From the IMG/VR virus record IMGVR_UViG_3300037466_001022: a stretch of DNA of 64,000 bases; one strand, given 5' to 3'. Both the position numbers and the translations under genes were made by a program. This DNA comes from an uncultured virus (IMG/VR IMGVR_UViG_3300037466_001022) (taxonomy: Duplodnaviria; Heunggongvirae; Uroviricota; Caudoviricetes). This document shows, piece after piece, positions 2,483 to 61,375 of this stretch; the stretch's first letter is position 1, and each line of letters opens with the position of its first letter. The notes beneath the pieces are model-generated. The model did not search any database. It saw only the letters and a list, made by a program, of their open reading frames with translations, and was not told the origin of the DNA.

Positions 2483-2520
2483 TGTGGTGGGACCTCACTC
2501 CGCGACCACAACTACTTAGT
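2483..2520 (-). promoter_or_regulatory. conserved endonuclease leader hairpin, copy 1, with degenerate late promoter
   Basis: UGUGGU-CGC-GGA-gugagg-UCC-C-ACCACA preceded by ACTAAGTA. Confidence 0.7.
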
Positions 2521-2531
2521 TTCTATAAGCC

Positions 2532-2560
2532 TTGACACTCAGTTGTGGTTCAACTAGAGT
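2532..2560 (+). promoter_or_regulatory. sigma70-type early promoter
   Basis: TTGACA-17 nt-TAGAGT upstream of ORF 2584. Confidence 0.55.
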
Positions 2561-2583
2561 GACAAACATCAACAGGGAACACG

Positions 2584-3030
2584 ATGCAAGATCGTACTGC
2601 GATAGCATTAATTGGATGGGAGACTCGTCGTCTTTACAGATTTGAGACTGAGTGTGAAATCCTCAAGCCTCTGCGCCAACGTCAATCGTTGGATAGCCTT
2701 CGTCATGAAGCGAAGAAAATCTGGAAGACGACCTTTTTTCGTCAGACACATGATATCCCTGAATTGAGATTCGGTCCGGGAACGAAACATGGAACTGAAA
2801 TGGTTTCGTTCTATCATTGGTATGACAACTACAGTGAATTTGCTCCAGGTGAAAGAAATTATTTGGTGTTAAGCCACGAGCTTGTCCATGCCAAGGGTTA
2901 TGAATACCATAACCAAGGTTTTGTAGCCGAATATTTCAAGGTTCTTGATCATCATTTCGATATCGATCTCAAGGAACTTTCATATCAAGCGGAAGTCTAT
3001 GATCTTCCATATCAACCCATGATCCATTGA
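2584..3030 (+). CDS. HExxH zinc-metalloprotease-like protein
   Basis: SHELVHAKGYEYH motif. Confidence 0.5.
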   Translation: MQDRTAIALIGWETRRLYRFETECEILKPLRQRQSLDSLRHEAKKIWKTTFFRQTHDIPELRFGPGTKHGTEMVSFYHWYDNYSEFAPGERNYLVLSHELVHAKGYEYHNQGFVAEYFKVLDHHFDIDLKELSYQAEVYDLPYQPMIH

Positions 3031-3038
3031 TCCATAGG

Positions 3039-3067
3039 TTGCTTTAACCTCTATTCACGTATATAAT
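3039..3067 (+). promoter_or_regulatory. sigma70-type promoter
   Basis: TTGCTT-17 nt-TATAAT. Confidence 0.5.
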
Positions 3068-3090
3068 GATTTCTCAATTTAGAGGAATAA

Positions 3091-5439
3091 ATGAGACAAT
3101 ATATTAAAGGTATCCTGGCAAAGCTTCTTGCCGAGGAAAACATGGTTGTCAGGTACGACAACGTTCCAAACGCCTCTTTCGATCAAAAGAGACGTATTCT
3201 TACTCTTCCAAATATCTCTGAACATGTGACTACCGACATGTTTAATTTCATGATTGGTAAGGAAGCGGCTCGTGCGTTGTATAACGACCGAAACGTTTCT
3301 GCGGATACAATCTTCAATAAGGTTGCTCCAGGAAAGAAGCAATGGGGTGGTCAGCTATATTCTATTGCTGATAGCGTTCGTACCGAACGTTTGATCAAGA
3401 GGAAGTATCCTGGTCTAGCTGTTTCTTTCCAACAGTCCTATAAAGATATCTATGACCGCTTTATTAACGGAAAGAATAATTTCTTTACGGCGGAAAATGT
3501 CAGCCTTCCGGATCGTCTGGCTGTGCATTTTCGTCTAGGTCCTATTGCAAACGTCCAATTCTCAAAGACGGAACGAAAGCTCGTCAAGCTTTTTGAGGAT
3601 ATGGAAACAACGGATGATGCGATTAAGGCCGCTTCCGAGCTTCGAAAGTTTATTGATGAGCCGCCTCCCTGTTCTGATGGTGGTGATGGTGAAGATGACC
3701 AGGATCAGGACCAGGATGGTGATAACCAGTCTAAGTCTAAGTCGAAATCTAAGTCCAAGAGCAAGTCAAAAGACAAAAACAAGGATAAAGACGACTCTGA
3801 CGGAGATGGTGATTGCGATTCCGATGATTCGGATGGTGACCAAGATGATTCGGATGGAGATGGAAAAGGTCAGGGTGATAGTGACTCTGACGATGACAAG
3901 GATGGTGATGGGGATTCTGACGGTGATGCCGACGGCGACTCCGATGATGACGGTGAGAAGGAAGGTAAATCTTCTCAAGGTGATAAGCCAGGCAAAGGCG
4001 GACCTTCTCCTCGCGACAATCAGGGTGGTTCTGGCTCAGAGAATGATAACAACCAAAATACCGATCTGAATGACCAAATTCAAGGTGCCCTGTCGAAAAA
4101 CATTGATAAATCTGGGGATAAATTCGACCTTGTATTCATGCCACAGGAATTAAATCCTGATGAATATATTGTTCCTCATAAGACTATTTTTGGTCAATCT
4201 TCTGTTTGGTCTAAAATGAATGATTCTAGCAATTCTGATGCGAGAGCATATAAGGAATGGCTCGATACCAATGGTCCAACCATCACACAGATGGTATTGG
4301 AATTTGAACGGCGCAAGCGAGCTATCCTGTATTCTCGCCAGAAGATTTCAAAGACTGGTATGATTGATACCAATCGTTTGCCACAATCTTTCTATTCGGA
4401 AGATGTATTCAAGCGTGTTACCAATATTCCAGAAGGTAAAAACCATGGTATGTTGATGATTATTGATTGGTCTGGTTCCATGGCAAGTAATATGTCAGGC
4501 ACACTGGATCAATTGATGAATCTTGTGGCTTTCTGTCGCCGCAGAAAGATTCCACATGAGGTATATGCATTCTCGGATGCAACTAGTCTTGGTGTTCCAT
4601 CAAATAAGAACAATAAGAAGATTGAACATGATGATGGAACTTTGGTTCCCAGTAGAATGAAACTTCTTCAATTCTTTACAGACGAAATGACGAATGCTGA
4701 GTACATTACAGCTATGGAAAATATCAATTCTCTTAGACTTGGATATAGTCCAAATGCTAACAGATATCGTCAATTGAACAATCTCAAGGGATTAAATCTT
4801 GGTGGTACCCCTTTGAATAGTGCTATTCTGGTAACTCCGTTTCTTGTCGAAAGGATGCGCCAACGTACAAAGGTCGAAATCTTCAAGACTATTCTTTTGA
4901 CGGATGGGGCATCCAATGCCGACATGAATGTTACTGGTAATAATAACTATAGCCGTTATGGGTATAATAATACCACTTCAGCTATTGGTCTTTCGGACCG
5001 TAAGACCGGATTTACTCGCCAGACCAAAAACAATATGTCATTCACAGGATCACTGATCGAATGGGCATCATTACGTGGTAAGTGTGATTTTGTTGGTATC
5101 TATATTGCGGATTCCTACAATATAAATCCAAAATCTCACTTGGATAGCTTATTGAAAAGCTTGTCGCCCGATGAACAAACTGGCGCAAAGAAGAAGAGTG
5201 AAAACATTGATAAGCAATTCGCATCAATGACAAAGGATGGTTTTTGTGTAACCGAAAATTTCGGTTTTAGCGAATACTACATTTTGGCTCCACAAAAAAG
5301 CCGAGACCAATCAAAAACGTTCACTCCTTTGAATGGTACGAGTACAGAGATTCTTTCTAAATCTCTCAATAAGGAGATTGAGAAGAAGAAGGTAAACCGA
5401 GTCCTTTTGTCGAGGTTTATTGAAAAATTGGCTGTATGA
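3091..5439 (+). CDS. CobT-like VWA-domain protein with long acidic low-complexity linker
   Basis: MIDAS motif IDWSGSM, GGTPLN and LLTDG; D/S/G/K-rich linker; adjacent to a MoxR/CobS ATPase. Confidence 0.8.
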   Translation: MRQYIKGILAKLLAEENMVVRYDNVPNASFDQKRRILTLPNISEHVTTDMFNFMIGKEAARALYNDRNVSADTIFNKVAPGKKQWGGQLYSIADSVRTERLIKRKYPGLAVSFQQSYKDIYDRFINGKNNFFTAENVSLPDRLAVHFRLGPIANVQFSKTERKLVKLFEDMETTDDAIKAASELRKFIDEPPPCSDGGDGEDDQDQDQDGDNQSKSKSKSKSKSKSKDKNKDKDDSDGDGDCDSDDSDGDQDDSDGDGKGQGDSDSDDDKDGDGDSDGDADGDSDDDGEKEGKSSQGDKPGKGGPSPRDNQGGSGSENDNNQNTDLNDQIQGALSKNIDKSGDKFDLVFMPQELNPDEYIVPHKTIFGQSSVWSKMNDSSNSDARAYKEWLDTNGPTITQMVLEFERRKRAILYSRQKISKTGMIDTNRLPQSFYSEDVFKRVTNIPEGKNHGMLMIIDWSGSMASNMSGTLDQLMNLVAFCRRRKIPHEVYAFSDATSLGVPSNKNNKKIEHDDGTLVPSRMKLLQFFTDEMTNAEYITAMENINSLRLGYSPNANRYRQLNNLKGLNLGGTPLNSAILVTPFLVERMRQRTKVEIFKTILLTDGASNADMNVTGNNNYSRYGYNNTTSAIGLSDRKTGFTRQTKNNMSFTGSLIEWASLRGKCDFVGIYIADSYNINPKSHLDSLLKSLSPDEQTGAKKKSENIDKQFASMTKDGFCVTENFGFSEYYILAPQKSRDQSKTFTPLNGTSTEILSKSLNKEIEKKKVNRVLLSRFIEKLAV

Positions 5440-5500
5440 TGCGGTTGATTTAATGAAAAGTTATGTTATTATGGTTTATATACTCTAGGAGAAGTTGATA

Positions 5501-6463
5501 ATGTCTGATGATAATGAAGTGATCAAGGAGCAGAGTGGGGTGCAGTCTTTGATTCCATCAAAGACCCCGGGTTACGTAGCATTTGGTGAATTTGAAACTG
5601 TGTTTTCAATCGTCAAGAGTGCGATTTTTTACCCAACGTTTATTACTGGTCTTTCCGGTAATGGTAAGTCTCTTATGGTTCGGGAGGTTTGTGCCCGGTC
5701 TCAGAGGCAGTATATTCGTCTAAACGTGACCGCTGAAACCGATGAGGATGATCTTCTTGGTGGTTTCCGACTTGAGGTATCTGGCGGTGCGTCAAAGACC
5801 GCATTCAAGTATGGTCCTGTGATTACTGCGATGCGTACAGGCTCCGTACTCCTTTTGGACGAAATCGATTGTGGTACTCCAAAGCTTATGTGCCTTCAGC
5901 CTATTCTTGAAGGTGAACCTGTCTACCTCAAGAAGACAAACCAGATTATTCATCCGGCACCGGGCTTCAATATCATTGCCTGCGCAAACACCAAGGGCCG
6001 TGGTGATGATGCTGGTAAATTCGTTGGAACGAACATGTTGAATGAGGCATTCCTTGAGCGGTTTGCTATCACGATTGAGCAGGATTATCCGGACGAATCT
6101 ACCGAGCGTAAGATTCTCATGAAGGTGATGGAATCAGTTCTTCCGACGGCGCCTGACCGCGATGATGAAGGTTTTGTCAAGTGTCTGGTTCAATGGGCGG
6201 CTTCTCTCCGCACTTCATACAATGAAGGTGTCCTCCAGGACGTTATCACCACACGTCGTCTTGTCTTGATTGTAAAGTCTTATGCAATCTTCAAGAAGGA
6301 CCGTAAGAAGTGCATGGAACTTGGTGTTGCCCGTTTCGATAAAGACACCAAGGAAGCATTTCTCACCCACTATTCGAATGTGGATGCTGCTTTCCGTTCC
6401 GCTAATAAGTCCTCGACCAGCAGCACTTCTTCTGGAAAGTCAAGTCGAATGACTCCGTTCTAA
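5501..6463 (+). CDS. cobS: CobS/MoxR-family AAA+ ATPase
   Basis: Walker A GLSGNGKS, Walker B LLLDEID, ANTKGRG, NEAFLERF; typical of T4-like phages. Confidence 0.85.
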   Translation: MSDDNEVIKEQSGVQSLIPSKTPGYVAFGEFETVFSIVKSAIFYPTFITGLSGNGKSLMVREVCARSQRQYIRLNVTAETDEDDLLGGFRLEVSGGASKTAFKYGPVITAMRTGSVLLLDEIDCGTPKLMCLQPILEGEPVYLKKTNQIIHPAPGFNIIACANTKGRGDDAGKFVGTNMLNEAFLERFAITIEQDYPDESTERKILMKVMESVLPTAPDRDDEGFVKCLVQWAASLRTSYNEGVLQDVITTRRLVLIVKSYAIFKKDRKKCMELGVARFDKDTKEAFLTHYSNVDAAFRSANKSSTSSTSSGKSSRMTPF

Positions 6464-6486
6464 TATCCTAGAGATTAGAATGGCTG

Positions 6487-6525
6487 GTCAAGTGGTTGGA
6501 GAAATCCAACCACTTGACTTTTTTT
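6487..6525 (+). terminator. intrinsic terminator
   Basis: GTCAAGTGGTTGGA-gaaa-TCCAACCACTTGAC followed by a T-run. Confidence 0.85.
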
Positions 6526-6575
6526 ATGGTATGTGTTAATCTGTTAAGACAATAAACAATAATAAGGAAAATATA

Positions 6576-6770
6576 ATGTCTACAAAAGAAAAGATGCTCA
6601 AGGTTCTCCAGTCAACTCGTGGAGTTGCATTCACCACACGTCAGGCTCGCCGTCGTTTCGGTATTAGTGGTGTAGCACAGCGTATCCATGATCTCCGTAA
6701 TGATGGATATGATATTAGAACCTACACAAATGATCGTGGCGTAACTGGCTATCGTCTAGCCCGCCGCTAG
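6576..6770 (+). CDS. small winged-HTH DNA-binding protein
   Basis: TTRQARRRFGI..VAQRIHDLRNDGYDI pattern. Confidence 0.65.
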   Translation: MSTKEKMLKVLQSTRGVAFTTRQARRRFGISGVAQRIHDLRNDGYDIRTYTNDRGVTGYRLARR

Positions 6771-6779
6771 AGAGAACAA

Positions 6780-6807
6780 AAGAGGAGTTGATTCTCCTCT
6801 TCTTTTT
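6780..6807 (+). terminator. intrinsic terminator
   Basis: AAGAGGAG-ttgatt-CTCCTCTT followed by a T-run. Confidence 0.6.
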
Positions 6808-7302
6808 ATGAACGATCTAAGCCTAGATTCCAAGAAAAGTAACTTGGGTCAAAAGGGTCTTGCAATAGTATTCAATTATTTGGTGAAAGTCAAGAAGTTT
6901 ACTTGTACCATTCCGAATGATGTTCTAGACCCCTTTGTTGATTTGATCATTTATCCAAAACACCCTGACTTGTCAGAATTTATTCTATCACAAGTCAAGA
7001 CCAAGGTTCCGTGGATATATGAAGAGTCACAATCTACGACAGATCGTCAATGGGAACGTTATAAACAGTTGAAATCCATGTGGATTGTCTGTGCACCATC
7101 CGTCGAATATGCATCAAAAGACATGTGGGCAGGAAATGTTTATCACTTCAATCCACAGACAGTAACAATCCGTGAAAAGGTCACCAAGAGTGGACGAAAG
7201 ATGGTGTTGATCCCATTGGATCAAATGGAGCCTTTATTCAAGGTTACAAATAAATTTGATTTGGATCAAATGAAAAGATTTGCTACTGAAGAAGATAAAT
7301 AA
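6808..7302 (+). CDS. hypothetical protein, possible PD-(D/E)xK-like fold
   Basis: VDLII...SQVKT resembles a D..QxK nuclease motif. Confidence 0.4.
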   Translation: MNDLSLDSKKSNLGQKGLAIVFNYLVKVKKFTCTIPNDVLDPFVDLIIYPKHPDLSEFILSQVKTKVPWIYEESQSTTDRQWERYKQLKSMWIVCAPSVEYASKDMWAGNVYHFNPQTVTIREKVTKSGRKMVLIPLDQMEPLFKVTNKFDLDQMKRFATEEDK

Positions 7303-7340
7303 TCCCACAATAAAAAATAACAATGAAGGATTATTAGAAC

Positions 7341-8162
7341 GTGGAATTGAATATTAAGGTAGAAGACCTACGTAAAAGGTCGCTCTTTGTTTGCTGCCCG
7401 ATGTATGGTGGTATGAACCATGGTTTATTTGCCAAGTCATGTCTTGATTTGCAGGCAATTTGCGCTCAATATGGTGTTAACGTCAAGTTTTCATTCTTGT
7501 TCAATGAAAGCTTGATCCAAAGAGCCAGAAATTATCTGGCAGATGAATTCCTAAGATCGGATTCAACTCATTTGATGTTTATCGATTCGGATATTCATTT
7601 TAACCCAAATGATGTTATCACACTACTTGCAATGGATAGAGATATTGCCGGTGGCCCTTACCCAAAGAAGCAGATCAATTGGAGAAATATCTATGAAGCT
7701 TCTCATGCCAAAAATGAAGAAGGTAACTTCAAGATCACATTAGAAACCTCCAATCTACTCGAATCAATGGTGGGAGATTACGTCTTTAATCCTGTTGCTG
7801 GAGTAACTCAAAATTTCCAGGTAACAGAACCATTGGAAGTAATGGAAATCGGTACAGGTTTCATGTTGATCAAACGTGAAACTTTTGATCGTTTCAGAGA
7901 AGTTTATCCAGAACTATCATATAAGCCAGATCACCATGGACAAGCGAACTTCGATGGATCACGTGAAATTCACGCTTATTTCCATTGTGACATTGATCCA
8001 GCAACGAAACGTTATTTGTCAGAAGACTATTTCTTCTGTCAGAAGTCTCGTGCCGCCGGTAAGAAGGTTTGGCTTTGCCCGTGGATGCGCCTCACCCATA
8101 TAGGAACTTATCCTTTTAAAGGAGATATGCCAATGATTGCTCAAATTACTGGTTGTTTATAA
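7341..8162 (+). CDS. GT-A-fold glycosyltransferase-like protein
   Basis: ESLIQRARN, LMFIDSDI (DxD), GTGFMLI and LSEDYFFC motifs. Confidence 0.75.
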   Translation: MELNIKVEDLRKRSLFVCCPMYGGMNHGLFAKSCLDLQAICAQYGVNVKFSFLFNESLIQRARNYLADEFLRSDSTHLMFIDSDIHFNPNDVITLLAMDRDIAGGPYPKKQINWRNIYEASHAKNEEGNFKITLETSNLLESMVGDYVFNPVAGVTQNFQVTEPLEVMEIGTGFMLIKRETFDRFREVYPELSYKPDHHGQANFDGSREIHAYFHCDIDPATKRYLSEDYFFCQKSRAAGKKVWLCPWMRLTHIGTYPFKGDMPMIAQITGCL

Positions 8163-10290: not shown

Positions 10291-10292
10291 TC

Positions 10293-10568
10293 ATGGGATA
10301 TCCGAGTAATTCAGAAGAATCTACCTTCCCGATTGTCAAGGAAGATATTGAGGAAGTAAAGCGGGCGATTAGAGAGATCAGCGACTCGATGACTCGGGTT
10401 GCTGCTGAACGAGACTTGATCAAGGAAACAAAGAAACGTCTTAAAGAAAAGTTTGGCCTAAAGCCAAAGTTGCTCACACGTCTCGCAAAAACGGTGTTCA
10501 ACGATGATTTCGATGTAACGGAAATGGAGCACGACGAATTCGTTGAAGCCTATAATAAAGTGAAGTAA
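10293..10568 (+). CDS. dsbA: T4 DsbA-like dsDNA-binding protein
   Basis: AIREISDSMTR..ERDLIKE..KEKFGL..F.EAY pattern resembles T4 DsbA. Confidence 0.65.
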   Translation: MGYPSNSEESTFPIVKEDIEEVKRAIREISDSMTRVAAERDLIKETKKRLKEKFGLKPKLLTRLAKTVFNDDFDVTEMEHDEFVEAYNKVK

Positions 10569-10585: not shown

Positions 10586-10667
10586 GCAACTTATTGTCAG
10601 TTGCGCCTTAACGGTGTAAGGCGGGTGGAGAATTCCTAGGATATTCTCACGACCCGCATTTTTTATG
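10586..10667 (-). promoter_or_regulatory. structured intergenic region containing orphan copy 5 of the endonuclease leader hairpin
   Basis: minus strand CATAAAAA-at-GCGGGU-CGU-GAGAAU-loop-AUUCUC-C-ACCCGC, plus two further hairpins. Confidence 0.55.
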
Positions 10668-12494: not shown

Positions 12495-12932
12495 GTGGTC
12501 GAAATTAAAGAAGATATTTTCCGTGGATTTGGTGTAGAAATTAAGCTCAAACAGCCTGATGATTTCTTGAAAGTCCGTGAAACATTAACTAGAATTGGTG
12601 TTCCTTCGAAGAAGGATAAGGTCCTGTATCAGTCATGCCATATCCTTCATAAGCAAGGTAGATATGCAATTTTGCACTTCAAGGAACTGTTTGGTCTTGA
12701 CGGTAAACCAAATAATATGACAGAAGAAGATGTATCACGCCGTAATACTATTGCTAATCTTCTGTGGGAGTGGGATTTGATCGAATTGGTTGATCCTGAC
12801 AAGACAAAAGACCCAGTATCACCAATAAGCCAAATTAAAATTCTTCCTTTCAAGGAAAAGGATCAGTGGAAATTGACGCCTAAATATTCGATTGGCTCTA
12901 AGACAAAAAAGGTCGTGGATAAGCAGTCTTGA
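12495..12932 (+). CDS. regA: translational repressor RegA
   Basis: DDFLKVRETLTRIG..LYQSCHILHKQGRYAILHFKELF.LDG. Confidence 0.95.
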   Translation: MVEIKEDIFRGFGVEIKLKQPDDFLKVRETLTRIGVPSKKDKVLYQSCHILHKQGRYAILHFKELFGLDGKPNNMTEEDVSRRNTIANLLWEWDLIELVDPDKTKDPVSPISQIKILPFKEKDQWKLTPKYSIGSKTKKVVDKQS

Positions 12933-18306: not shown

Positions 18307-19082
18307 TGTGTATTTTCGATTTGTGGTCTGATTTTCATATAGAAGGAAATCGGAGATTTGATTGGAATAACTGGCAACCTACTTCTAATATATTAGTTTT
18401 GGCTGGTGACACATCTAATCAACCAGCGGTTACTTTGCAGGTAGTTAAGGAAGCCGCCGATGTGTATGAACATGTCTTGTTTGTTTCTGGAAATCATGAT
18501 TATTATGGTAACCACTCCATATACGAAACTAATAAAATCTTTCGCGAAAAATTGCCTGATAGAGTTAATTTTTTGGAAGCAGGTATTGACAAATGGGTAT
18601 CTATTGAGGATACTCTATTTGTTGGTGATATGGGTTGGTATTCCTGGGATTATCCTGGAGTCGGACTTCAGGGTAAACAAGCTGACAATTGGTATCATAA
18701 TTTGAACGATGCGCGATATATTGAATTCAAGGGTTATCTTCCTCCAGATTTAGCTCAAGATAGTGCTGAATATCTATATGACGAATTATCTTCTAATTTC
18801 CGGAAAACCTTCATGAATACGGTTGTTGTTACCCACACTGTTCCTCATCTAAAAGGGCTTGTTGGTCCTGATCATATGTGGGCTCCATTGAATGGAAGTT
18901 ACTATAACTCCTATATGGGAAAAATCTGGAATGATGATAACATAAAGCCAGATGTTTGGTGTTTTGGACATACACATCAACAAAATGACTTTCTCGATAA
19001 CGGTGTTCGCTTTATTTCAAATCCAAGAGGATATCATGGAGAAAGGGATATAGCAAAATTACCAAAATTAATTGAATTGTGA
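18306..19082 (+). CDS. calcineurin-like metallophosphoesterase
   Basis: SDFH, AGD, GNHD, THTVP, FGHTH, NPRGY. Confidence 0.88.
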   Translation: MCIFDLWSDFHIEGNRRFDWNNWQPTSNILVLAGDTSNQPAVTLQVVKEAADVYEHVLFVSGNHDYYGNHSIYETNKIFREKLPDRVNFLEAGIDKWVSIEDTLFVGDMGWYSWDYPGVGLQGKQADNWYHNLNDARYIEFKGYLPPDLAQDSAEYLYDELSSNFRKTFMNTVVVTHTVPHLKGLVGPDHMWAPLNGSYYNSYMGKIWNDDNIKPDVWCFGHTHQQNDFLDNGVRFISNPRGYHGERDIAKLPKLIEL

Positions 19083-19703
19083 GCATTTCCATTTTTTATG
19101 ATGTAATCGTTTTCCATATGCCACACTTTGCATTTTGTTATATAGAAGATTATTTTTCTGGCAAAATTCCTTAAGATTTTTTACTTCATGGCAATTTCCA
19201 TCTGGATCAATGATTATCCAGGATTTTGCATTGATTGATGCTAATTTTTCTTTTGTTTCATTCGTATGATTTTTACCTATTTTTGATGCACTAATTCTGG
19301 CAAGAGTTTCCTTTTTGTGTTTCCATCTTATCCCAAATGCAGGATTAAGTGGGCCGATTCTAAGTGATAATTTTTTCTTATGATCTTCTGAAACAATGTG
19401 ACCTAATGTTCCGTCGCCACCTAATGTCATATTATAACCATTCTCAAATGTATCGTAATATTGGATGAAATATCCTTCCATTGTATTAAGAAGATATTTG
19501 CCATCCAATGATTGACATATGACTTCCCATTCAAACGCTTTCCACCCATATTTCCTGATAGCTCTATGGAATTTATAGTTAGAATTACATTTTAAGGATT
19601 CTCGTTTATGACCATAGGTCCTGTTAGGCCAATTACTATCAAAACCAATATAGGACTTACCGTTGACCTTATTGGTGGCTTTATAAATAGAATAGATTTT
19701 CAT
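19068..19703 (-). mobile_element. GIY-YIG (Seg-like) homing endonuclease with NUMOD3-like repeats
   Basis: SIYKATN..NGKSYIG, GYNMTLGGDG, H..ET..KIS repeats; likely start is MKIYSIY at 19703. Confidence 0.88.
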
Positions 19704-19730
19704 TGCTGTTATCTCTACAGGGGTAATAGG

Positions 19731-19771
19731 ATTGGTGGGACGGCAATCCGCGACCAATATCCTTATTTATA
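19731..19771 (-). promoter_or_regulatory. T4-type late promoter plus conserved endonuclease leader hairpin, copy 2
   Basis: TATAAATA (19764-19771) then AUUGGU-CGC-GGA-uugccg-UCC-C-ACCAAU. Confidence 0.75.
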
Positions 19772-19780
19772 CCGTTTGGG

Positions 19781-19810
19781 TTGACTTTTGAATGTTCTAT
19801 GGTATAAATA
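19781..19810 (+). promoter_or_regulatory. tmRNA promoter (TTGACT -35 and TATAAATA late box)
   Basis: TTGACT-16 nt-TATAAATA directly upstream of the tmRNA acceptor piece. Confidence 0.6.
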
Positions 19811-19816
19811 ATTCTA

Positions 19817-20268
19817 TGGTCGTTGAAGTTGAGCGAAAAATAGAGGACACCCGGGGGCGGTACCCGGCACCTCCACCACTAAACATTTGAGCCGAACGCA
19901 CACCCGTAGCGAAATTAGTTTCGATAAACTATCGGATGATTTTTTTAGAAACGGTTGGTCGCACGAAAGCTTTGATTACTTTGACTGAAGCTGATCATTG
20001 GGATTTATCGCCAATGTCCGACGGGGTCAAAGAATAGGCGGATTCCGGAATCACGTATGATCCCTAGTCAAATGTTTAGTTGTGGGGGTGAAATAGGATC
20101 GATCCATATATAATAGTGATACTGAGACTGTCGGGCAGATACTCCCGTAACAAGGTCAAAACACAAACGTTGCATCTAATGACAACGATGCATTGGATTT
20201 CGCACTAGCTGCGTAGCCAATGCTGGGTTTTGTTGGTTGTCCTCGAAACAGAATCAACCAACACTTTT
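19817..20268 (+). ncRNA. ssrA: circularly permuted two-piece tmRNA, alphaproteobacterial type
   Basis: acceptor piece: T-arm CCGGG-GGCGGUA-CCCGG then CACCUCC-A-CCA ending at 19878. Coding piece starts GGGGGUGAAAUAGGAUCGA at 20084, giving a 7-bp acceptor stem with G3.U70. Tag frame 20172-20216 reads ASNDNDALDFALAA*. 3' hairpin at 20231-20263. Outer ends are approximate. Confidence 0.92.
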
Positions 20269-29362: not shown

Positions 29363-29869
29363 TTATCCTGAAATGACTTGTTTAGCATCGATTATTGCCT
29401 GTTCTAACAAATGATTTTTTACTTCAAATTTATTGGTATTTGTGTCCTTACAGAGGAGTAAAAATTCCCACCCCTTCTCTTCACAGAATTTCTTAGCCGC
29501 TAACCATTTGGAACCATTGGTATAATAACGTTGGATAGCTTCGGTATAGGTTTTCTTGCTCTGTCTTTTCCCTTTGATTGGTTTAACGGAAAATTGTGCA
29601 GGTTTGATTTCTATGAGAGTTGGAACAATCTTACCATTTCTTACAATTCTTGCAAATATGTCAGGAAAGTACCTATGGGGGGTCCTATCAAGCACATTAA
29701 TATAGGGAATTACCAATTCTTCAGAATTCCACCCAATTACTGTACTAGAAGAGTCTAACCATTTAAACACCTCACGCTCCCATCCACTCCGAAAAATTAT
29801 ATTGTTTACATCCCCTATATATTTGTGGGGATTGGTGGGGCGGAATCGACCCTTATCTGTTTCTCTCAT
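29363..29869 (-). CDS. gp4: head completion nuclease (gp4)
   Basis: GRFRPTNPHKYIGD, RSGWE, SEE..IPY, HRYFPD, IEIKP, KW.AA. Confidence 0.92.
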   Translation of the reverse strand: MRETDKGRFRPTNPHKYIGDVNNIIFRSGWEREVFKWLDSSSTVIGWNSEELVIPYINVLDRTPHRYFPDIFARIVRNGKIVPTLIEIKPAQFSVKPIKGKRQSKKTYTEAIQRYYTNGSKWLAAKKFCEEKGWEFLLLCKDTNTNKFEVKNHLLEQAIIDAKQVISG

Positions 29870-30534
29870 ATATTTTTCCTAGCTTTATACCCCTTATGCG
29901 TACCTTTTGAAAGTATCCTTGGATTTAATCCTAGATTCTTACAAAAACGAGGCAAACCTTTGACAAATTGTTCAATACCATTAGGATAAGTAATTATCCA
30001 TTCTTTTGATTTGCTATTAGACATTTTATCTTTGGCTTCTTGTGTATGTATTTTACCAATATGGGATTTGCGAATTTTTTCAATGTGTTCAAGGGATTTT
30101 TTCTTACCTTTAGTTTTCAAACTTTTGAGGATGTTCATTTCTTTTGGTTGTTTTTTACCATACCAATAATTTTTGATTCCTTTTTGTGCGTCTGACATTT
30201 TCTTTCTAGTTTCATCACTAATTATCCTACCTAATGCACCTTCGCCACCTTTTGTCATGTTATAGCCGTTTATTCCAAAAGTGTCATAATATTCAATGAA
30301 ATATGGCTCCATTACATTTTTTAGATAATCACCATCCTTTGATTGACATATGACCTCCCAATCGAAAGACCCCCATCCATATTTACGAATTGCTTTATAG
30401 AAAATAAATTGTTGGTTTACTACCAAAGCATCTCTTTTATGACATTTTAAGCGTTTTGGCCATTTACTGTCAAAACCAATATAAGATTTGCCATTAATTC
30501 TATTGGTGGCCTTATAAATAGAGTATATTTTCAT
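29866..30534 (-). mobile_element. GIY-YIG (Seg-like) homing endonuclease with NUMOD3-like repeats
   Basis: near-identical N-terminus to 19068..19703; GYNMTKGGEG; ETRKKMS repeats. Confidence 0.88.
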
Positions 30535-30562
30535 TGCTGTTATTCCTTCCTGGATAATAGAG

Positions 30563-30606
30563 TTGGTGGGAGTTCCAGTCCGCGACCAATATCACACTTA
30601 TTTAGG
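30563..30606 (-). promoter_or_regulatory. late promoter plus conserved endonuclease leader hairpin, copy 3
   Basis: CCTAAATA then UUGGU-CGC-GGA-cuggaac-UCC-C-ACCAA. Confidence 0.75.
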
Positions 30607-30621: not shown

Positions 30622-31713
30622 ATGAGTCAATCCTTCGATTTCCGCGGTCCTCTTGCAGCATTGGAACCTGAACAGTCGTCTACGGCGATAAAATGTTATT
30701 ATTATCCAGCAGATTTAACGACTGTTACCGGACATTATGTAAGATTCGATTGCCAAATTTTTGAAGATTCTCGGTTTCAACAAGGTATCAAAGGTAATTT
30801 TGGTTCAGCCAAAGACGCGGGAAGTTTGTTGACAAACAATGCTGAAGCGGCGGCCTTGAAGATTCTTTCTGGTGCATCGGGAACATCAACAGGTGCAGCA
30901 GCTTCAACACTTGGGCAATTCATTAAACCAATTTCTACGGGTGGTTCAACCACTACCGCAGCATTGAATTATTTGAACGCTCTTCCAGAAGGCGGCGATC
31001 TATACAAATATTTTCCTGGTCTTAGAGGTCTTGGGAACAAGCGAACTCTCAACCATATCTATATGTACACCCCTGACACTCTTGTTTATGGATATAATAA
31101 CCAATGGGAAACAGTCTCTCTTAGAGAGAAATTCGGCGTCCTAGCCGATGGTGTGTCTGCCTTCCAGGATATCAAAAAGGGTGATTTTGGTAGTGCTGCT
31201 GCACTTCTTACACCCTATCTATCTAAGGGTCTTGGTTTGGGTGATGCGACATCCCAAAGAAATACCCTTATGGCGATGATGGGCTTCCCCATTAATCCAG
31301 TAAACGAAGTATTGTTCAAAGAAACCCAACAACGACAATTCACTATGCGATTTAAATTATATCCACAAACTGCCAAAGAAACAGAAGAAATCTTCAACAT
31401 CGTTGAACAATTTGCTTTCCATGCTGCTCCTGAATATGCCCAAGGTGAATTTGGTGGTTTCTTGATCATGCCATCTGTGTTCGATATCAAATTCATGTTC
31501 GTTGTCAGAAATCCTGATGGATCACCCATGGAAATTGAAAACCCTTGGATTAGAAGAATATCCACCTGTGCATTGACAGATTTCAATGTCGATTATTCTA
31601 ATGATGGTGCATGGCAGGCTATGGAAGATGGATCACCAAGATCGGTGGATCTTACTCTATCCTTTAAGGAATTGGAAATTATCGACAAATCACGAGTCAA
31701 GCGAGGATTCTAA
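30622..31713 (+). CDS. gp48: baseplate tail-tube cap (gp48)
   Basis: NP..EVLF...RQFTMRFKLYP..E, P..F.I.F, C.LT...VDY, L.L.F.E. Confidence 0.8.
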   Translation: MSQSFDFRGPLAALEPEQSSTAIKCYYYPADLTTVTGHYVRFDCQIFEDSRFQQGIKGNFGSAKDAGSLLTNNAEAAALKILSGASGTSTGAAASTLGQFIKPISTGGSTTTAALNYLNALPEGGDLYKYFPGLRGLGNKRTLNHIYMYTPDTLVYGYNNQWETVSLREKFGVLADGVSAFQDIKKGDFGSAAALLTPYLSKGLGLGDATSQRNTLMAMMGFPINPVNEVLFKETQQRQFTMRFKLYPQTAKETEEIFNIVEQFAFHAAPEYAQGEFGGFLIMPSVFDIKFMFVVRNPDGSPMEIENPWIRRISTCALTDFNVDYSNDGAWQAMEDGSPRSVDLTLSFKELEIIDKSRVKRGF

Positions 31714-56328: not shown

Positions 56329-56347
56329 ATAATATTTCGGAGATTTC

Positions 56348-57313
56348 ATGAAGCATATCACAACCAAAGCCGATTTCATCAAATATTGCAAGAGACAACT
56401 GGGTTTTCCAGTAGTCCAAATCAATGTGTCTGATGAACAAATTTCAGACCGTATTGATGAAGCTCTTGGTTTGATGCAGGAATATCATCCTGACGCCACT
56501 CAGAAGACCTATGTTAAATACCAGATTACCCAACAGGATATGGATAATCGTTACCTCGACATGAATAGAGCCTCTGGTACAGCAGACATCGAATCTGGTT
56601 CTGTCAATGTTATTGGTCATGGTACCTCTTTCCCAGAAGATACCCAGCTTGAAGACACTTTGATCAAAATCAATGGAGAAACAAAAGAAGTTATTTCTGT
56701 ATCAAATACTACATTCTTGACTGTCAATTCGGCTTTCTCATCCACTGCTACGAATCAATTGATAACCTTCCCGAACACTTACAGATTCTATAACGTTATC
56801 AAGATTTTCCCTATTGGTGACTCTATTGCATCTGGGTCCTATATGTGGGATTTGAACTACCAAATTCGCTTGAATGAATTGTATGATTTCACAACTACAT
56901 CATACATTCCATATGAAGTCACAATGCAACATTTGCGTACTATCCAGATGTTATTCGTTGGCGACTCCGAGATACGTTTCAACCGTCGCAACAATCGCCT
57001 TTATCTTGATATCAATTGGCAAGGAAGCATTAAACTCAGTGTCGGAACCTGGATGGTGATCGAAGCTTATCGCATCTTGACACCTGACATGATGCCAGAA
57101 TTGTGGGATGATTGGTGGTTGAAGAGATATGCTGTTGCCTTGATTAAGAAACAATGGGGATATAACACCAAGAAATATAAGAACATTGCTCTTATTGGAG
57201 GTGTAACCATGTCCGGTCAGGAATTATATGATGAAGCGGTAAAAGAAGTAGAAGAATTGGAAGATCAATTGCGTGACAATTTGCAACCGCCGCCTCAATT
57301 TTTCGTAGGATAG
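56348..57313 (+). CDS. gp13: neck protein gp13
   Basis: YC.RQLG.PV..INV..EQI.DRID.A, WLKRY..ALIK.QWG, GGVT..G; TATAAATA at 56324. Confidence 0.92.
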   Translation: MKHITTKADFIKYCKRQLGFPVVQINVSDEQISDRIDEALGLMQEYHPDATQKTYVKYQITQQDMDNRYLDMNRASGTADIESGSVNVIGHGTSFPEDTQLEDTLIKINGETKEVISVSNTTFLTVNSAFSSTATNQLITFPNTYRFYNVIKIFPIGDSIASGSYMWDLNYQIRLNELYDFTTTSYIPYEVTMQHLRTIQMLFVGDSEIRFNRRNNRLYLDINWQGSIKLSVGTWMVIEAYRILTPDMMPELWDDWWLKRYAVALIKKQWGYNTKKYKNIALIGGVTMSGQELYDEAVKEVEELEDQLRDNLQPPPQFFVG

Positions 57314-57314
57314 T

Positions 57315-58181
57315 ATGCCGACTAATAACTTTTTTCAAGATTACTCCATTGGAAGCCAGGAATCCAGCCTGGTAGAAGACCTTATTATCGAATCTATACA
57401 AATACATGGTGTAAACGTGTATTACATACCTCGTGAGTCGGCCACAGGTAATATTGACAAATTATATGGAGAAGATACTTTATCTAAATTTACACAAGCC
57501 TATCATATGGAAGCTTATGTTGAGTCAACAGAAGGCTTCGATGGACAAGGAGAATTCTTATCTAAATTTGGTCTTGACATGAACAACCAGGCTGAATTGA
57601 TAGTGTCAATTCGTCGGTTCGGGGAAGCAACAAGCCAACAATTCGTTAGACCACGTGAAGGTGATCTTGTCTATCTTGGCTTTAAACCAAATCTATTCGA
57701 AATCAAATATGTCACTGACAAGACAGAATTCTTTCAATTAGGTAAGCTATATTTCTACAAGCTTAGACTTGAAGCCTTCCGTTATGGAAATGAAAGCATT
57801 GATACTGGAATCACTGATGTTGACGATATTGGCCGTGAAGTAGGCTTTAGAATCGCTTTTGTTCTCGGATCGGGTTCTGGTAATTACCAGATAGCGGAAC
57901 AAGTCTATCAGGGCACAAGTTTTGCAACTGCGACGGCGGTTGCCGACGTAGCATCATGGGATCATCCAACTAAAGACCTTCAAGTCATTAACATTGTTGG
58001 TGAATTTGTCGCAAATACAAATATTGTTGGGGTTGTTTCTGGAGCATCATACCAGTTGACTTCATATGATGATATGCAAGATGAAAATGGTGGATTGATT
58101 GTTAATCAGGAAGTCAATGATGAAGCTAACACAATCATTGATTTCTCAGAGGAAAATCCCTTCAGCGAGAATCTTCCATGA
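57315..58181 (+). CDS. gp14: neck protein gp14
   Basis: ESIQ..G..VYYIPR, SKFG, RPREGDL, FFQLGK, DFSE.NPF. Confidence 0.92.
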   Translation: MPTNNFFQDYSIGSQESSLVEDLIIESIQIHGVNVYYIPRESATGNIDKLYGEDTLSKFTQAYHMEAYVESTEGFDGQGEFLSKFGLDMNNQAELIVSIRRFGEATSQQFVRPREGDLVYLGFKPNLFEIKYVTDKTEFFQLGKLYFYKLRLEAFRYGNESIDTGITDVDDIGREVGFRIAFVLGSGSGNYQIAEQVYQGTSFATATAVADVASWDHPTKDLQVINIVGEFVANTNIVGVVSGASYQLTSYDDMQDENGGLIVNQEVNDEANTIIDFSEENPFSENLP

Positions 58182-59176
58182 TTTCGAATCTCGATTTTGA
58201 CAACCACTCTATCAGAAAAGCTACTGCTGCATTTGGTGCATTGTTCAATAATATAATCCTGGTTAAACGAGATTCTAATGGGAATGAGTTAAAAAGGGTA
58301 AAAATCCCGTTGGCCTACGGCTCCAAAGAAAAATATCTTGCCATCCTAACAGAAGACCCAGAAAAGAAGCGCGCAACACAATTGCCTGTTCCCAGAATGG
58401 CATACAGTCTTGTTGGTTTGAGCTATGATGCCGGCCGCAAACAGCAAACAATGCTGAAAAACAAGAGTGCAATTGCTGGTAATCCCTTGAAACTGAACAC
58501 ACAATTCGTTCCGGTGCCATATGATTTGATGTTTGACTTGAACATCATCACAAGAGAAATTTCCGATGGGCTCGAAATTATTGGTAAAATCCTACCATTT
58601 TTCACTCCAGACTACACAGTCAGCATCAAATATTCGGATACAATCGGGCAACAGGCAACAAAAGACACACCAATTATCCTAAGTAATACTACCTTTGAAG
58701 ATAACACAGTTGGTCCATCGGGTGAAGTTCGTCTGATCATTTGGACTCTAAGCTTTATCATGAAGGCATATGTATTCGGCCCAGAAACTTCACAGAGCCA
58801 GATCAAGAAAGTACAAATCAGTTTCTTTAATGATGGTTTGACTCCAACTGATATTACAATTTCTGGTATTCCTGTAACCGCAATAAGCCATCGTGGATCG
58901 AACACCCTCTATACTTCGGCAAATGTGGCTGGTCTTGTCAACGCTAACGATTCAATCATTGTTGATGGAACCACCATCAGAGTAACAGGTGTTTCATCCA
59001 ACGTATTGACAAGCAATTTGATCTTTACAACGGATGCTCAACAATTGTCGCTACAATATAATAATCCAAGTACAGTGATGGTAGCCAGGTATACAGCCGA
59101 AGTTACACCAAATACAGCCTTGATTACCGACAACTATGTAATTACTGATTTATTTGAGGATTTTTCCAATGAGTAA
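58178..59176 (+). CDS. gp15: tail sheath stabilizer gp15
   Basis: FG.LFNNI, PLAYG.KEK, PRM, PVPY, ILPFF.P. Confidence 0.9.
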   Translation: MISNLDFDNHSIRKATAAFGALFNNIILVKRDSNGNELKRVKIPLAYGSKEKYLAILTEDPEKKRATQLPVPRMAYSLVGLSYDAGRKQQTMLKNKSAIAGNPLKLNTQFVPVPYDLMFDLNIITREISDGLEIIGKILPFFTPDYTVSIKYSDTIGQQATKDTPIILSNTTFEDNTVGPSGEVRLIIWTLSFIMKAYVFGPETSQSQIKKVQISFFNDGLTPTDITISGIPVTAISHRGSNTLYTSANVAGLVNANDSIIVDGTTIRVTGVSSNVLTSNLIFTTDAQQLSLQYNNPSTVMVARYTAEVTPNTALITDNYVITDLFEDFSNE

Positions 59177-59663
59177 TATCAAAAAAAGCCTAGATGATAT
59201 CTTCGAAGTCCCACAGCCTGTAATAACGGAGGTTTTTGATGATGAAATATCAATATCGCCACCGACAATCATTGGAACACCGCAGGAAGCTAGACCGATA
59301 TCTAGTTCATACTACACGGAAGAAAGACCAGAAGAAATTGAAAACCAGGATGAAGATTTTAGAAAGGCTCGCAAGAATATTCGCAATATCGTGGATAAAG
59401 GCGACACTCTTCTAAAAGGCATCATGGACGTTGCTTCTGAAACCGATAAACCAAGTGCTTATGAGGCTGCCGCTCTCATAATGAAAACTCTCATGGAGGC
59501 AAACAAGGATTTGATCGACATCCATGAGAAAAACAAGAAATTCAAAGCATTACCAGAAAGCAATTTACCAGTTAATAATGGCGATATCAATGTCAACAAT
59601 GCTGTGTTTGTTGGCAATGCTACGGATTTGCTGAAGAAAATCAGAGAAGTTAAAGAGGATTAA
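59169..59663 (+). CDS. gp16: terminase small subunit gp16
   Basis: D...AR.N, P.AYE, NNAVFVG..DL. Confidence 0.85.
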   Translation: MSNIKKSLDDIFEVPQPVITEVFDDEISISPPTIIGTPQEARPISSSYYTEERPEEIENQDEDFRKARKNIRNIVDKGDTLLKGIMDVASETDKPSAYEAAALIMKTLMEANKDLIDIHEKNKKFKALPESNLPVNNGDINVNNAVFVGNATDLLKKIREVKED

Positions 59664-61318
59664 TGTCTAAAAAGAATTCTGGTGTACGTGGAAATAAACA
59701 ACTTGTAAATCCAAATGAAATTCATGGCTATACTCTAACCGAAGTCGAAGAATTTGCTAAATGTGCATCTGATCCGGTCTATTTTGTCAAAACTTATATG
59801 AAGATCAGAACTGCCGATGGTCAAGTTATCCCATTTACTCTATGGCCATGGCAGGAGGATTTGCTCAGACTTTATCATGAAAATCGTTTCGTAATCAGTC
59901 GAATCGCTAGACAGTCTGGTAAGACTTCGGTTTCTATTGCATATTTCTTGTGGTTGGCTCTATTCCATGAACAGAAGTTGATTGCCATTCTTGCCAACAA
60001 GGCTTCTACCTCCCGAAGTATTCTAGCACGTATTCGTCTTGCCTATGAACATTTGCCGAAATTTCTACAACAGGGTGTCATCACATGGAACAAGGGTGAC
60101 ATTGAACTTGGTAATGGATCTAAAATCTTCGCTTATTCAACCTCTGCCGAATCAGTCCGAGGCGAAACCTTCTCTGCTATCTTGCTTGACGAGTTGGCAT
60201 TCGTTGAACCAAATGTGGCTGAAGAATTCTATACCTCGACTTATCCAGCCATCACAGGTGGTAAAGACACGAAGATTTTCATTGTTTCTACTCCTAATGG
60301 AATTGGTAATCTATACCATACTATGTGGGTCAAAGCGGAGACCGGTAAATCAAATTTCAAACCATTCACTGTCAACTGGTGGGATGTTCCAGGTCGTGAT
60401 GAAAAATGGAAACAAGAAACCATTGCCAATACAAGTGAACGTCAATTTGAACAGGAATTCAACATCGAATTCCTTGGTTCTGCCGATACATTGATCTCGG
60501 GCCAAAAACTCCGCTTGCTACAAGGTATTGATCCGGTTGTCACAAACCAAGATGGACTTGCCATATACGAAGAACCAATTGAAAAACATCAATATGCTAT
60601 CACAGTAGACGTAGCAAGAGGTGAAGGCCAGGATTATTCTGCATTTACCGTATTCGATATTACAACGATTCCTTACAAGATTGTTGCTCGTTTCAGGAAC
60701 AACAAGATTGATCCAATCGTATTTCCCAATCATGTATTTACAGTTGGCAATCGCTATAATGAAGCATTCGTATTGGTTGAATTAAATGATATTGGAGCCC
60801 AAATTGCCGATATTCTTCATTATGATCTAGAATATGAAAATATGTATTATTCCTCACCTAAAGATCATCTCGGAGCACTAACAGTTGGCTCGACAAACGG
60901 CCGATACAATTATGGTCTAAAAATGTCGGTCAGTTCAAAGAAAATTGGTTGTGCAAACTTGAAGGCGCTTGTTGAAGACGACAAATTGACAATCCCAGAC
61001 TGGGAAACCATCAAGGAATTGGCTACATTCGTGCGTCATAACAACACCTACAAAGCTCAAGAAGGTATGCATGACGACTTGGCAATGACATTGGTCATGT
61101 TTGGCTGGCTTGTCGCCCAGAAAGAATTTAGAAATACCTCTGAAACAGATATTTTCAAGCATCTTAGTGGTACCGAAGAAGAGGTGCCTAACCCAATCGT
61201 ATTCGTGGATGAAAACGTTTATCCTATTTTGTCAGCAAAATCAGGTAAATTTGCAGAGAAAACCTCCACTGAGGTCTGGGTAACCGTGGATACAGAAGAT
61301 AATAGCTGGTTCCGATAA
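59663..61318 (+). CDS. gp17: terminase large subunit gp17
   Basis: RQSGKT, LLDELAF, STPNG, QEF..EF, DVARG..DYSAF, HDD. Confidence 0.96.
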   Translation: MSKKNSGVRGNKQLVNPNEIHGYTLTEVEEFAKCASDPVYFVKTYMKIRTADGQVIPFTLWPWQEDLLRLYHENRFVISRIARQSGKTSVSIAYFLWLALFHEQKLIAILANKASTSRSILARIRLAYEHLPKFLQQGVITWNKGDIELGNGSKIFAYSTSAESVRGETFSAILLDELAFVEPNVAEEFYTSTYPAITGGKDTKIFIVSTPNGIGNLYHTMWVKAETGKSNFKPFTVNWWDVPGRDEKWKQETIANTSERQFEQEFNIEFLGSADTLISGQKLRLLQGIDPVVTNQDGLAIYEEPIEKHQYAITVDVARGEGQDYSAFTVFDITTIPYKIVARFRNNKIDPIVFPNHVFTVGNRYNEAFVLVELNDIGAQIADILHYDLEYENMYYSSPKDHLGALTVGSTNGRYNYGLKMSVSSKKIGCANLKALVEDDKLTIPDWETIKELATFVRHNNTYKAQEGMHDDLAMTLVMFGWLVAQKEFRNTSETDIFKHLSGTEEEVPNPIVFVDENVYPILSAKSGKFAEKTSTEVWVTVDTEDNSWFR

Positions 61319-61337
61319 TAGGTAACAATTGAATGGG

Positions 61338-61375
61338 TATAAATAGTATGGGTCGCGAGCGCCAACTCCACCCAT
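61338..61375 (+). promoter_or_regulatory. late promoter plus conserved endonuclease leader hairpin, copy 4
   Basis: TATAAATA-gt-AUGGGU-CGC-GAG-cgccaa-CUC-C-ACCCAU. Confidence 0.75.

Follow-up and report, generated by a model that had tools for sequence, protein, structure and literature searches.

Large phages carry homing endonucleases as their main selfish genes, and to our knowledge the restraint of these genes is understood only for a handful of T-even examples, in which every hairpin is idiosyncratic. A 64,000-nt stretch from an uncultured T4-like virus (IMG/VR record IMGVR_UViG_3300037466_001022; the whole stretch is called the window here) contains four homing endonuclease genes (HEGs) of unrelated nuclease families, and the same small structured element lies in front of every one of them. 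What does this element do, and which strand does its fold serve? We propose tentatively, with a probability of roughly 45%, that it is part of a portable expression-control cassette whose conserved fold would mainly serve the strand opposite to the nuclease gene, as a repressing cis-antisense RNA.

Structure, covariation and nuclease linkage

The first-pass annotation of the window, made from the letters alone, had described one hairpin upstream of each HEG. Reading of the sequence confirmed the four hairpins with their coordinates, strands, stems, loops and GGU-CGC/C-ACC core, but the conserved unit is not a single hairpin. It spans ~57 nt and comprises two hairpins with conserved linkers, in the order P1 (with the CGC/C internal loop), YCUA, a second hairpin P2 that bears the Shine-Dalgarno sequence (SD), CAGC and the start codon. 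The box previously read as CTAT(A/T)A is conserved, although it is really the YCUA(U/A) linker together with the first bases of P2, after which CAGC follows.

In 37 distinct aligned copies, the outer stem of P1 has 6 bp preceded by a U and follows the scheme R-N-N-G-G-U / A-C-C-N'-N'-Y; above it, CGC faces a single C, and an inner stem of 3-6 bp closes a free loop. The annotation had likened this 3x1 loop to a C-loop, an asymmetric internal loop with defined base triples; in secondary structure, ViennaRNA draws it as two bulged C residues flanking a G-C pair, and both drawings are equally possible. P2 counts 5 bp when the U:A pair that joins the final U of CUAU to the initial A of ACAGC is included. 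It is a weak hairpin (4-5 bp) with part of the GGAG in its loop or 3' strand, and the strong hairpin, P1, stands away from the ribosome-binding site (RBS). The start codon lies 1-3 nt after CAGC in 36 of 50 copies. At sites 1 and 4 of the window and in their relatives, the AUG is located inside the P2 loop instead and CAGC becomes coding (M-S-Q, M-L-Q), with the element intact.

The compensatory stem changes seen in the four window copies extend to strong covariation across the family. In an unconstrained MAFFT alignment of the 37 copies, 92.0% of the cells were paired, as opposed to 70.5% after shuffling and 28-47% in slid-partner controls, and the covariation score of 0.546 (shuffled, 0.170) was reached by 0 of 500 shuffles. 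A covariance model was built from this alignment, and in 53 distinct copies aligned to it 93.8% of the cells were paired (shuffled, 69.0%; slid controls, 33-50%), with changes on both sides in 14 of the 16 pairs; the 53-copy alignment is fitted to the model and thus leans toward it, and the MAFFT result agrees. Model-found copies covary even within the supposedly invariant GGU/ACC (GUU/AAC, AGU/ACU, AAC/GUU), and one relative has CAC/U in place of CGC/C. A joint switch from CUAU...ACAGC to CUAA...UCAGC also occurs, while CGC/C, CUA and CAGC stay constant.

These patterns bear on the idea that the element is passive heritage, derived from one ancestor, spread by recombination and without function beyond its promoter and RBS. 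The paralogy of sites 2 and 3 fits this idea, as do the many HEGs in related phages that manage with a bare late promoter before the ATG. We nevertheless consider it highly improbable: pairing persists through both-side changes while the loops vary freely, the outer stem has been fully replaced in some copies with CGC/C, CUA and CAGC kept, and the element is retained even when the open reading frame (ORF) start moves into P2 and CAGC turns coding.

The element is closely linked to nuclease genes. The pattern GGTCGC-N(8-20)-CACC has four matches in the window, with 0.26 expected and four reached in 0 of 100 shuffles, and the covariance model with filters off returned the same four sites at 44-60 bits, the next match scoring 15.9 bits. 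A PHROGs scan of the 65 window ORFs of at least 90 aa identified exactly four with HEG families, each behind an element; because the genes at sites 2 and 3 are paralogues, the window provides three independent instances, not four. In five related IMG/VR records, the model found 17 copies, eight of them in one 360-kb record (G004), and each of the 17 immediately precedes an ORF. Nuclease-annotated families were assigned to 14 of the ORFs, two match only the GIY-like phrog_15526 and one has no family. For metagenome contigs, a stricter pattern gave at least 121 loci and 94 unique copies, 68 of which pass a structure filter; among the matches listed, 35 of the 52 downstream ORFs of at least 50 aa have nuclease-annotated PHROGs, four have families of unknown function only and 13 have none. 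The families of the 14 annotated ORFs in the related records are GIY-YIG, SegE-type and LEM-3-type GIY-YIG, HNH, HNH_3, NUMOD3 and DUF4379/DUF2726/phrog_559, which adds a DUF4379/DUF2726-type nuclease to the GIY-YIG subtypes and HNH on which the annotation had based its view that unrelated families share the leader.

The linkage runs in one direction: most copies of the element predict a nuclease gene, whereas the element cannot be predicted from the presence of such a gene. GIY-YIG and HNH matches far outnumber element copies in the five related records, and when 20 HEG starts of the relatives that had no first-pass match were inspected, 16 had no copy and four had diverged ones (30.6-35.6 bits). 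The first-look filter of the model search can miss such diverged copies, as with four in G004. The annotation's statement that the leader marks every HEG therefore describes the window (4/4) and is not general, since many HEGs in the relatives lack the element. Several of these copy-less genes have a late-promoter box directly against the ATG. In G004, many leaderless HEGs of the same families with a box abutting the start codon (e.g. L398, L402, L405, L408) make up a second, minimal cassette type.

The first codons and the promoter box travel with the element, as the annotation's notion of a portable expression module had anticipated. The whole behaves as a portable 5' module of ~90-100 bp, and since it is common, first codons included, to unrelated nuclease domains, recombination within the cassette is implied. 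At least three unrelated nuclease superfamilies thereby have one module in common, in phages of soil, lakes and other habitats that are T4-like, jumbo or, in some cases, higher in GC.

Strand served by the fold

The annotation had treated the leader as an element of the sense strand only, which is probably not the case. Among non-Watson-Crick cells of the model alignment, A.C/C.A combinations outnumber G.U/U.G by 32 to 8. The metagenome set, counted at pattern-free positions only, gave 33 A.C and 9 G.U, even though its structure filter scored G.U as paired and A.C as unpaired and therefore favoured G.U. The P2 pair next to CUAU is the most pronounced example, with 49 Watson-Crick, 19 A.C-type, 0 G.U and 0 other combinations. 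Because A.C on one strand is G.U on the other, these counts point away from a purely sense-strand RNA and suggest conservation of the fold on the antisense strand, a signal that is genuine though narrow.

A second line of evidence lies at the far edge of the element. TATTTA, the inverse of the late-promoter core, occurs within the first 36 nt of 28 of the 43 motif-linked ORFs, compared with none of the 57 remaining window ORFs and 9 of 1777 background windows. In the different nuclease families it is translated in all three frames (as I-Y, I-F or Y-L), which identifies it as a signal at the nucleotide level. Seven further ORFs contain TACTTA, the inverse of the forward-box variant TAAGTA, which is the upstream box at site 1 and in relatives L175 and L193. 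Spacing is regular on both sides. The forward box ends 2-8 nt before P1, with a mode of 5 (37 of 96 copies), and lies within 12 nt in 72 of the 96; the inverted box starts 5-7 nt past CAGC in 48 of the 96, and an inverted TAAATA or TAAGTA core is found 4-9 nt past CAGC in 55, including three of the four window copies. Sixty copies have both boxes and 20 have neither. By the T4 rule that late transcription begins some six bases beyond the box, the forward and inverted boxes would give transcripts starting at opposite edges of the element. Taken with the mismatch pattern, the inverted box points to an opposite strand that is at least co-functional.

Copies without an attached ORF provide a third indication. 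In viral contigs, all six run antisense to the genes or tRNA genes on either side. Five are located between co-directional genes, four of them starting 10-16 nt after the upstream stop codon; the sixth (L159 of IMG/VR, 1164-1239, -) lies between tRNA-Met (1079-1157, +) and tRNA-Ile (1250-1325, +), where tRNA processing would release its reverse complement as a small RNA. A run of six U follows one of the six copies on the opposite strand. The orientation test is nevertheless mixed, because metagenome copies also occur in sense before non-HEG ORFs. The L159 phage contig additionally contains a permuted tmRNA (1945-2396).

These observations can be assembled into a model of the cassette. A T4-type late-promoter box, the 57-nt element and the start codon are followed, in most copies, by the inverted hexamer 5-7 nt beyond the element. 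On the sense strand the element is the mRNA leader, with P2 holding the SD and at times the AUG. The inverted box would start a short RNA at the far edge of the element, composed of GCUG-P2'-UAG-P1' and the U-rich complement of the forward box. Being perfectly complementary to the leader, the SD and the start codon, this RNA would hold down translation of the nuclease, and convergent transcription would add interference. Stems that fold on both strands, as in cis-antisense systems, favour Watson-Crick-only covariation. Where the HEG faces away from its neighbour, as at site 3, the outward transcript could double as the neighbour's leader: on the + strand, the divergent baseplate gene that starts at 30622 has no late-type box in front of it other than the inverted one at 30513-30520. 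The structure and its covariation, the nuclease linkage, the enrichment and spacing of the boxes and the strand asymmetry of the mismatches are direct observations, from which we infer that either box fires, that the antisense RNA exists and that it represses the nuclease.

Several findings weigh against this proposal. Leader fold stability is ordinary (z-scores of -1.9 to +0.8 in six copies), so that the structure is carried by covariation only. The A.C excess comes largely from one P2 pair, that adjoining CUAU; leaving out this pair and the weak fourth inner one reduces it to 14 versus 9, and the phylogenetic relatedness of the copies limits all such counts. An inverted box is missing at site 1, those of sites 2 and 3 overlap in part with the GIY-motif codons S-I-Y-K, and box presence is confounded by lineage, namely AT-rich T4-like phages. 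Behind P1' stands only the U-rich complement of the forward box and no canonical terminator, and a terminator scan did not flag the sites. In four metatranscriptome runs, available as contigs only, no transcript of either strand was seen and no contig covered a leader; over the region compared, 58000-64000, the contigs span portions of the sheath gene plus, for one run, HEG 61722-61941. In sense copies of the metagenome set the SD is always within P2. A few non-HEG ORFs (L437, L443/L450/L452, L432, L517) are also preceded by the element in sense. Lastly, boxes resembling TATAAT -10 elements by eye lie ~25 nt upstream of sense copies L439, L468 and L474/L481 (GC 0.55-0.62), which precede HNH-like ORFs with ATG or GTG starts, so the leader is not tied to T4-type late promoters.

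The last three points argue for a function of the sense strand and belong to the strongest competing account, a leader that acts only in the sense mRNA. A protein or small ligand would read the CGC/C loop and the CUA/CAGC junction and thereby set the degree to which P2 hides the SD; alternatively, a 5'-terminal P1 would shield the mRNA from decay. The position of the SD in the loop or 3' strand of P2 and the distance of 1-3 nt from CAGC to the start codon in most copies fit this account, and the modal 5-nt gap would set the first base of a late transcript at the foot of P1. It also accommodates unpaired nucleotides that are invariant while the stems covary, and the same layout behind TATAAT-like boxes and before a few non-HEG ORFs. 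We still regard it as rather unlikely. The A.C preference over G.U, about 4:1 in two sets, is the reverse of what a fold of the sense-strand RNA predicts; TATTTA in three reading frames goes unexplained, and so does the antisense position of every one of the six viral-contig copies that lack an ORF; nothing points to a partner protein or ligand, and P2 has only 4-5 bp.

The two boxes are complementary by construction, which raises the further idea of a long-range mask as in T4: in read-through transcripts the forward box would pair with TATTTA past the AUG, and the resulting three-way junction would hide the start, whereas late transcripts, starting inside the junction, would stay open. This logic is established for I-TevI, segB and mobE of Aeh1 (PMC2988022), and in relative L175 the upstream TATAAGTAAT matches the downstream ATTACTTATA. 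In 50 copies, the mean duplex energy was -7.8 kcal/mol for cognate, -7.5 for non-cognate and -7.1 for shuffled pairs, and TACTTA variants stand behind ordinary TAAATA boxes with no compensation. Pairing between the promoter box and the first codons was thus rejected, as duplex energies do not distinguish it and compensatory changes are lacking, and we judge the mask very unlikely.

Scarcely more credible is a role of the element as DNA, be it as a hairpin or cruciform or as a recombination or landing site for exchange or insertion of nuclease ORFs. G.U makes up only ~1% of the paired cells, inverted hexamers bracket the element, and cassette and first codons are common to unrelated nuclease domains, all of which a DNA site would explain. 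There is, however, no linked recombinase, and all 21 copies in the window and the five related records have a HEG attached, which leaves no landing site vacant in this set. As the core of the late promoter, the bracketing hexamer is more simply explained by promoters, and the regular positions of SD and AUG agree with a transcript. We retain the antisense-serving cassette as our preferred reading.

A P1-only look-alike in the window (10611-10658, -; GGGUCGUGAGA...UCUCCACCC) has CGU replacing CGC and scores 15.9 bits (E 0.069). Its + strand reads as a GC-rich hairpin followed by a T-run, between the gene of a gp33-like regulator (10293-10565) and a clamp-loader gene (10681), and it is likely a terminator that resembles the reverse complement of P1.

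The four window sites and the wider distribution

Features of the four sites are collected in Table 1. The annotation had assigned one shared cassette to all four HEGs, and each indeed has the element; a late-promoter box sequence of TATAAATA or CTAAATAA type lies 2-8 nt before P1 at sites 2-4, whereas site 1 has only the variant TAAGTA. The HEG at site 4 is inserted between the genes of the terminase large subunit and the tail sheath, and IMG/VR record G003 carries a near-identical copy of the site 4 element.

Table 1. Elements, promoter-like boxes and homing endonuclease genes at the four window sites
Feature	Position	Strand	Basis and details
Site 1 variant late-promoter-like box TAAGTA	2513..2518	-	Read from sequence; 2 nt upstream of P1
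Site 1 element	2452..2511	-	cmsearch 48.3 bits, E 2e-9; P1 2483-2510, UCUAU 2478-2482, weak P2 with SD and AUG (2461-2463), ACAGC 2454-2458 within codons 2-4
Site 1 LEM-3-type GIY-YIG HEG	1771..2463	-	Pfam PF22945 E 3.6e-8; phrog_314 homing endonuclease E 2.8e-12
Site 2 late-promoter box TATAAATA	19764..19771	-	Read from sequence; 5 nt upstream of P1
Site 2 element	19703..19759	-	cmsearch 55.0 bits; P1 19731-19758, CCUAU, P2, ACAGC, AUG 19701-19703
Site 2 inverted TATAAATA box	19682..19689	+	Within HEG codons 5-8, facing back over the element; counted in the TATTTA enrichment
Site 2 GIY-YIG/NUMOD3 HEG	19068..19703	-	phrog_314 E 1e-32; weak GIY-YIG and NUMOD3 Pfam matches; paralogue of 29866-30534
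Site 3 late-promoter core TAAATA (CTAAATAA)	30599..30604	-	Read from sequence; 8 nt upstream of P1
Site 3 element	30534..30591	-	cmsearch 60.4 bits; P1 30563-30590, UCUAU, P2 (UUAUCC/GGAAUAA around SD), ACAGC, AUG 30532-30534
Site 3 inverted TATAAATA box	30513..30520	+	Within first HEG codons
Site 3 GIY-YIG/NUMOD3 HEG	29866..30534	-	NUMOD3 E 9.4e-13; phrog_314 E 2e-26; paralogue of 19068-19703
Site 4 late-promoter box TATAAATA	61338..61345	+	Read from sequence; 2 nt upstream of P1
Site 4 element	61347..61411	+	cmsearch 44.4 bits; P1 61348-61375, UUCUAU, P2 (AAC/GUU) with SD and AUG (61400-61402) in its loop, ACAGC 61405-61409 within codons 2-4
Site 4 inverted late-promoter core (AATAAATA on minus strand)	61419..61424	-	9 nt past CAGC
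Site 4 HNH-type HEG with NUMOD3	61400..62014	+	NUMOD3 E 1.3e-7; phrog_655 homing endonuclease E 4.4e-27

The window encodes T4-like phage proteins, namely clamp, clamp loader, RegA, gp32, baseplate proteins, terminase and sheath; the gene of the RegA-type translational repressor lies at 12495-12929 (+; phrog_242, E 2.7e-56), and RegA is thus available as the candidate binding partner of the leader that the annotation had named. The nearest named relatives are cyanomyoviruses, with merely 47% identity in TerL, and DNA of the phage is present in soil and rhizosphere metagenome runs. The nearest record to the window, G001, is a 6-kb fragment without the motif. A search of the whole window on both strands with Rfam 15 passed the gathering score only for tmRNA models, and at E values up to 10 nothing overlapped the four sites on either strand, in line with the annotation's expectation of an undescribed motif. 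The tmRNA gene (19762-20262, +) is of the permuted two-piece alpha type (RF01849, 94.2 bits; RF04321, 86.6 bits). The gene starts 3 nt past the site 2 element and has its own TATAAATA box at 19803-19810 (+), 6 nt before the RF04321 start. A permuted tmRNA in the phage, combined with its soil and rhizosphere origin, suggests an alphaproteobacterial host.

The annotation had suggested a search of T4-like phages for the leader. In IMG/VR, a loose pattern scan gave at least 120 loci, and a complete scan with a refined pattern gave 118, ~65 of which have the fold, the rest being GC-rich chance matches. Among 15 named phages, the covariance model found a clear copy only in Variovorax phage V45v66 (86004-86060; 41.5 bits, E 1.9e-7), directly before a GIY-like ORF. 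The match in B23 was only marginal (E 0.04), and nothing significant was obtained for phiN3, Vibrio 2.275.O, Aeromonas phiA8-29, Syn33, ACG-2014g, Aeromonas 25, S-PM2, HTVC008M, phiM9, P10VF, S-SRM01, S-N03 and RN05-S. BLAST of two leaders against named phages produced short chance-level matches only, and a Gamaleyavirus match was rejected, as it lies within a coding sequence and scores 2.7 bits with the model. A pattern scan of bacterial genomes yielded the fold in 0 of the 120 matches listed.

Two groups of copies deviate from the usual cassette. In the related contigs L443, L450 and L452, the element is followed by a conserved UAGUCAA stretch, a third hairpin and an ORF of ~238 aa without a PHROG family; the UAGUCAA stretch is also found in L266. 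These contigs may represent a longer variant of the RNA or a client gene that is not a nuclease. In L078 (1497-1729, +), the element precedes a 66-aa ORF that consists of NUMOD3-like repeats alone, with no catalytic domain, and appears to be a decayed HEG that has retained its leader.

Known systems and biological meaning

Control by a late promoter and an RNA hairpin has been described for T-even and Aeh1 HEGs (I-TevI, I-TevII, I-TevIII, segB and mobE), and the hairpin of seg43(25) from Aeromonas phage 25, located upstream of the RBS, is called 'unusual' (PMC2988022). The same review describes promoters for neighbouring genes embedded in T4 seg and mob coding regions as favouring retention, and states that an invading endonuclease can create antisense transcripts (PMC2988022). 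The outward transcript proposed for site 3 would correspond to such embedded promoters. The element resembles these HEGs in the late promoter directly upstream, the leader hairpin and a presumed late and low expression, and it resembles seg43(25) in that the main hairpin P1 lies upstream of the RBS and leaves it unhidden; the model found no copy in Aeromonas phage 25. In contrast to the T-even genes, the promoter box of the element is outside the hairpin and a long-range mask is unsupported. The element further differs in that its two hairpins form a motif conserved in sequence from one nuclease family and phage lineage to another, the unpaired bases being invariant, and in its inverted promoter box.

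The closest precedent for the proposed antisense transcript is CfrI of cyanophage S-PM2, an antisense RNA of ~225 nt that overlaps a HEG, links it to psbA and is thought to regulate the HEG; a 2010 review gives it as the only antisense RNA reported in T4-like phages at that time (PMC2984593). The two would share an antisense transcript over a HEG in a T4-like phage, but the RNA proposed here, predicted from sequence, would be ~60-90 nt long and cover only the leader and start region. The model found no copy of the element in S-PM2.

Dassa et al. (2009) reported hairpins in the 5' untranslated regions of GIY-YIG and other free-standing HEGs from uncultured ocean phages, often together with TATAAATA, and, at one 'fractured gene' locus, a hairpin retained after loss of the HEG (PMC2677866), to which the ORF-less copies here are comparable. 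Two of their MEME motifs, 1 and 2, pair with each other and hide the RBS (PMC2677866). An identity with our element was rejected, since the instances in their Figure S4 are unlike it and GGTCGC occurs 0 times in their supplement. Our literature searches yielded no description of the element, although bulk catalogues of predicted phage RNAs (e.g. PMC10690425) could contain it unnamed; the phiM9 paper mentions neither a hairpin nor a leader.

The layout of the cassette also recalls cis-antisense control outside HEGs. In phage P22 sar/ant, lambda OOP/cII and type I toxin-antitoxin pairs, toxic or timed genes are controlled in cis by antisense RNAs. In such systems convergent promoters lie tens of bases apart, and a short structured RNA covers the RBS and start codon of a gene that is harmful in excess. 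The inverted box appears similarly placed, as an opposite-strand promoter motif from which transcription would run across the RBS and start. The differences are that the pair would be driven by late promoters on a mobile nuclease cassette and that its RNA and terminator are putative. HEARO, the omega-RNA of IscB, is an Rfam family of HNH endonuclease-associated RNA and ORF. Like HEARO, the element is a conserved structured RNA adjoining nuclease ORFs in mobile DNA; unlike it, the element is far smaller, lacks a guide-like variable segment, partners protein-guided HEGs and has no Rfam match. Restraint of phage HEGs by a late promoter and an RNA structure, possibly with an antisense RNA, is a known kind of system, whereas the specific element is not known from Rfam 15, the motifs of Dassa et al. 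or our literature searches.

Since the leaders are so alike, one copy, the ORF-less ones included, could act in trans. In this extension, which we consider doubtful, the element would found a new class of small structured phage RNA that polices HEGs, a single copy acting on all leader-bearing nuclease mRNAs in a co-infected cell, and the invariant GCUG, UAG and G/GCG bases would serve as a platform for a protein or for RNA-RNA docking. Such an RNA would restrain selfish nucleases across the whole genome, or serve competing phages as a weapon against one another. In a weaker form of this extension, the sense leader itself would be a switch of a new type that responds to a ligand or a protein.

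The cassette implies that the control region itself is a mobile, exchangeable part, behind which nuclease domains are swapped, and the element can be used as an annotation marker for the 5' ends of HEG cassettes. It also offers a compact and testable candidate for antisense-RNA control in T4-like phages, and Variovorax phage V45v66, a cultivable carrier with a named host, Variovorax sp. SCN45, makes experiments feasible.

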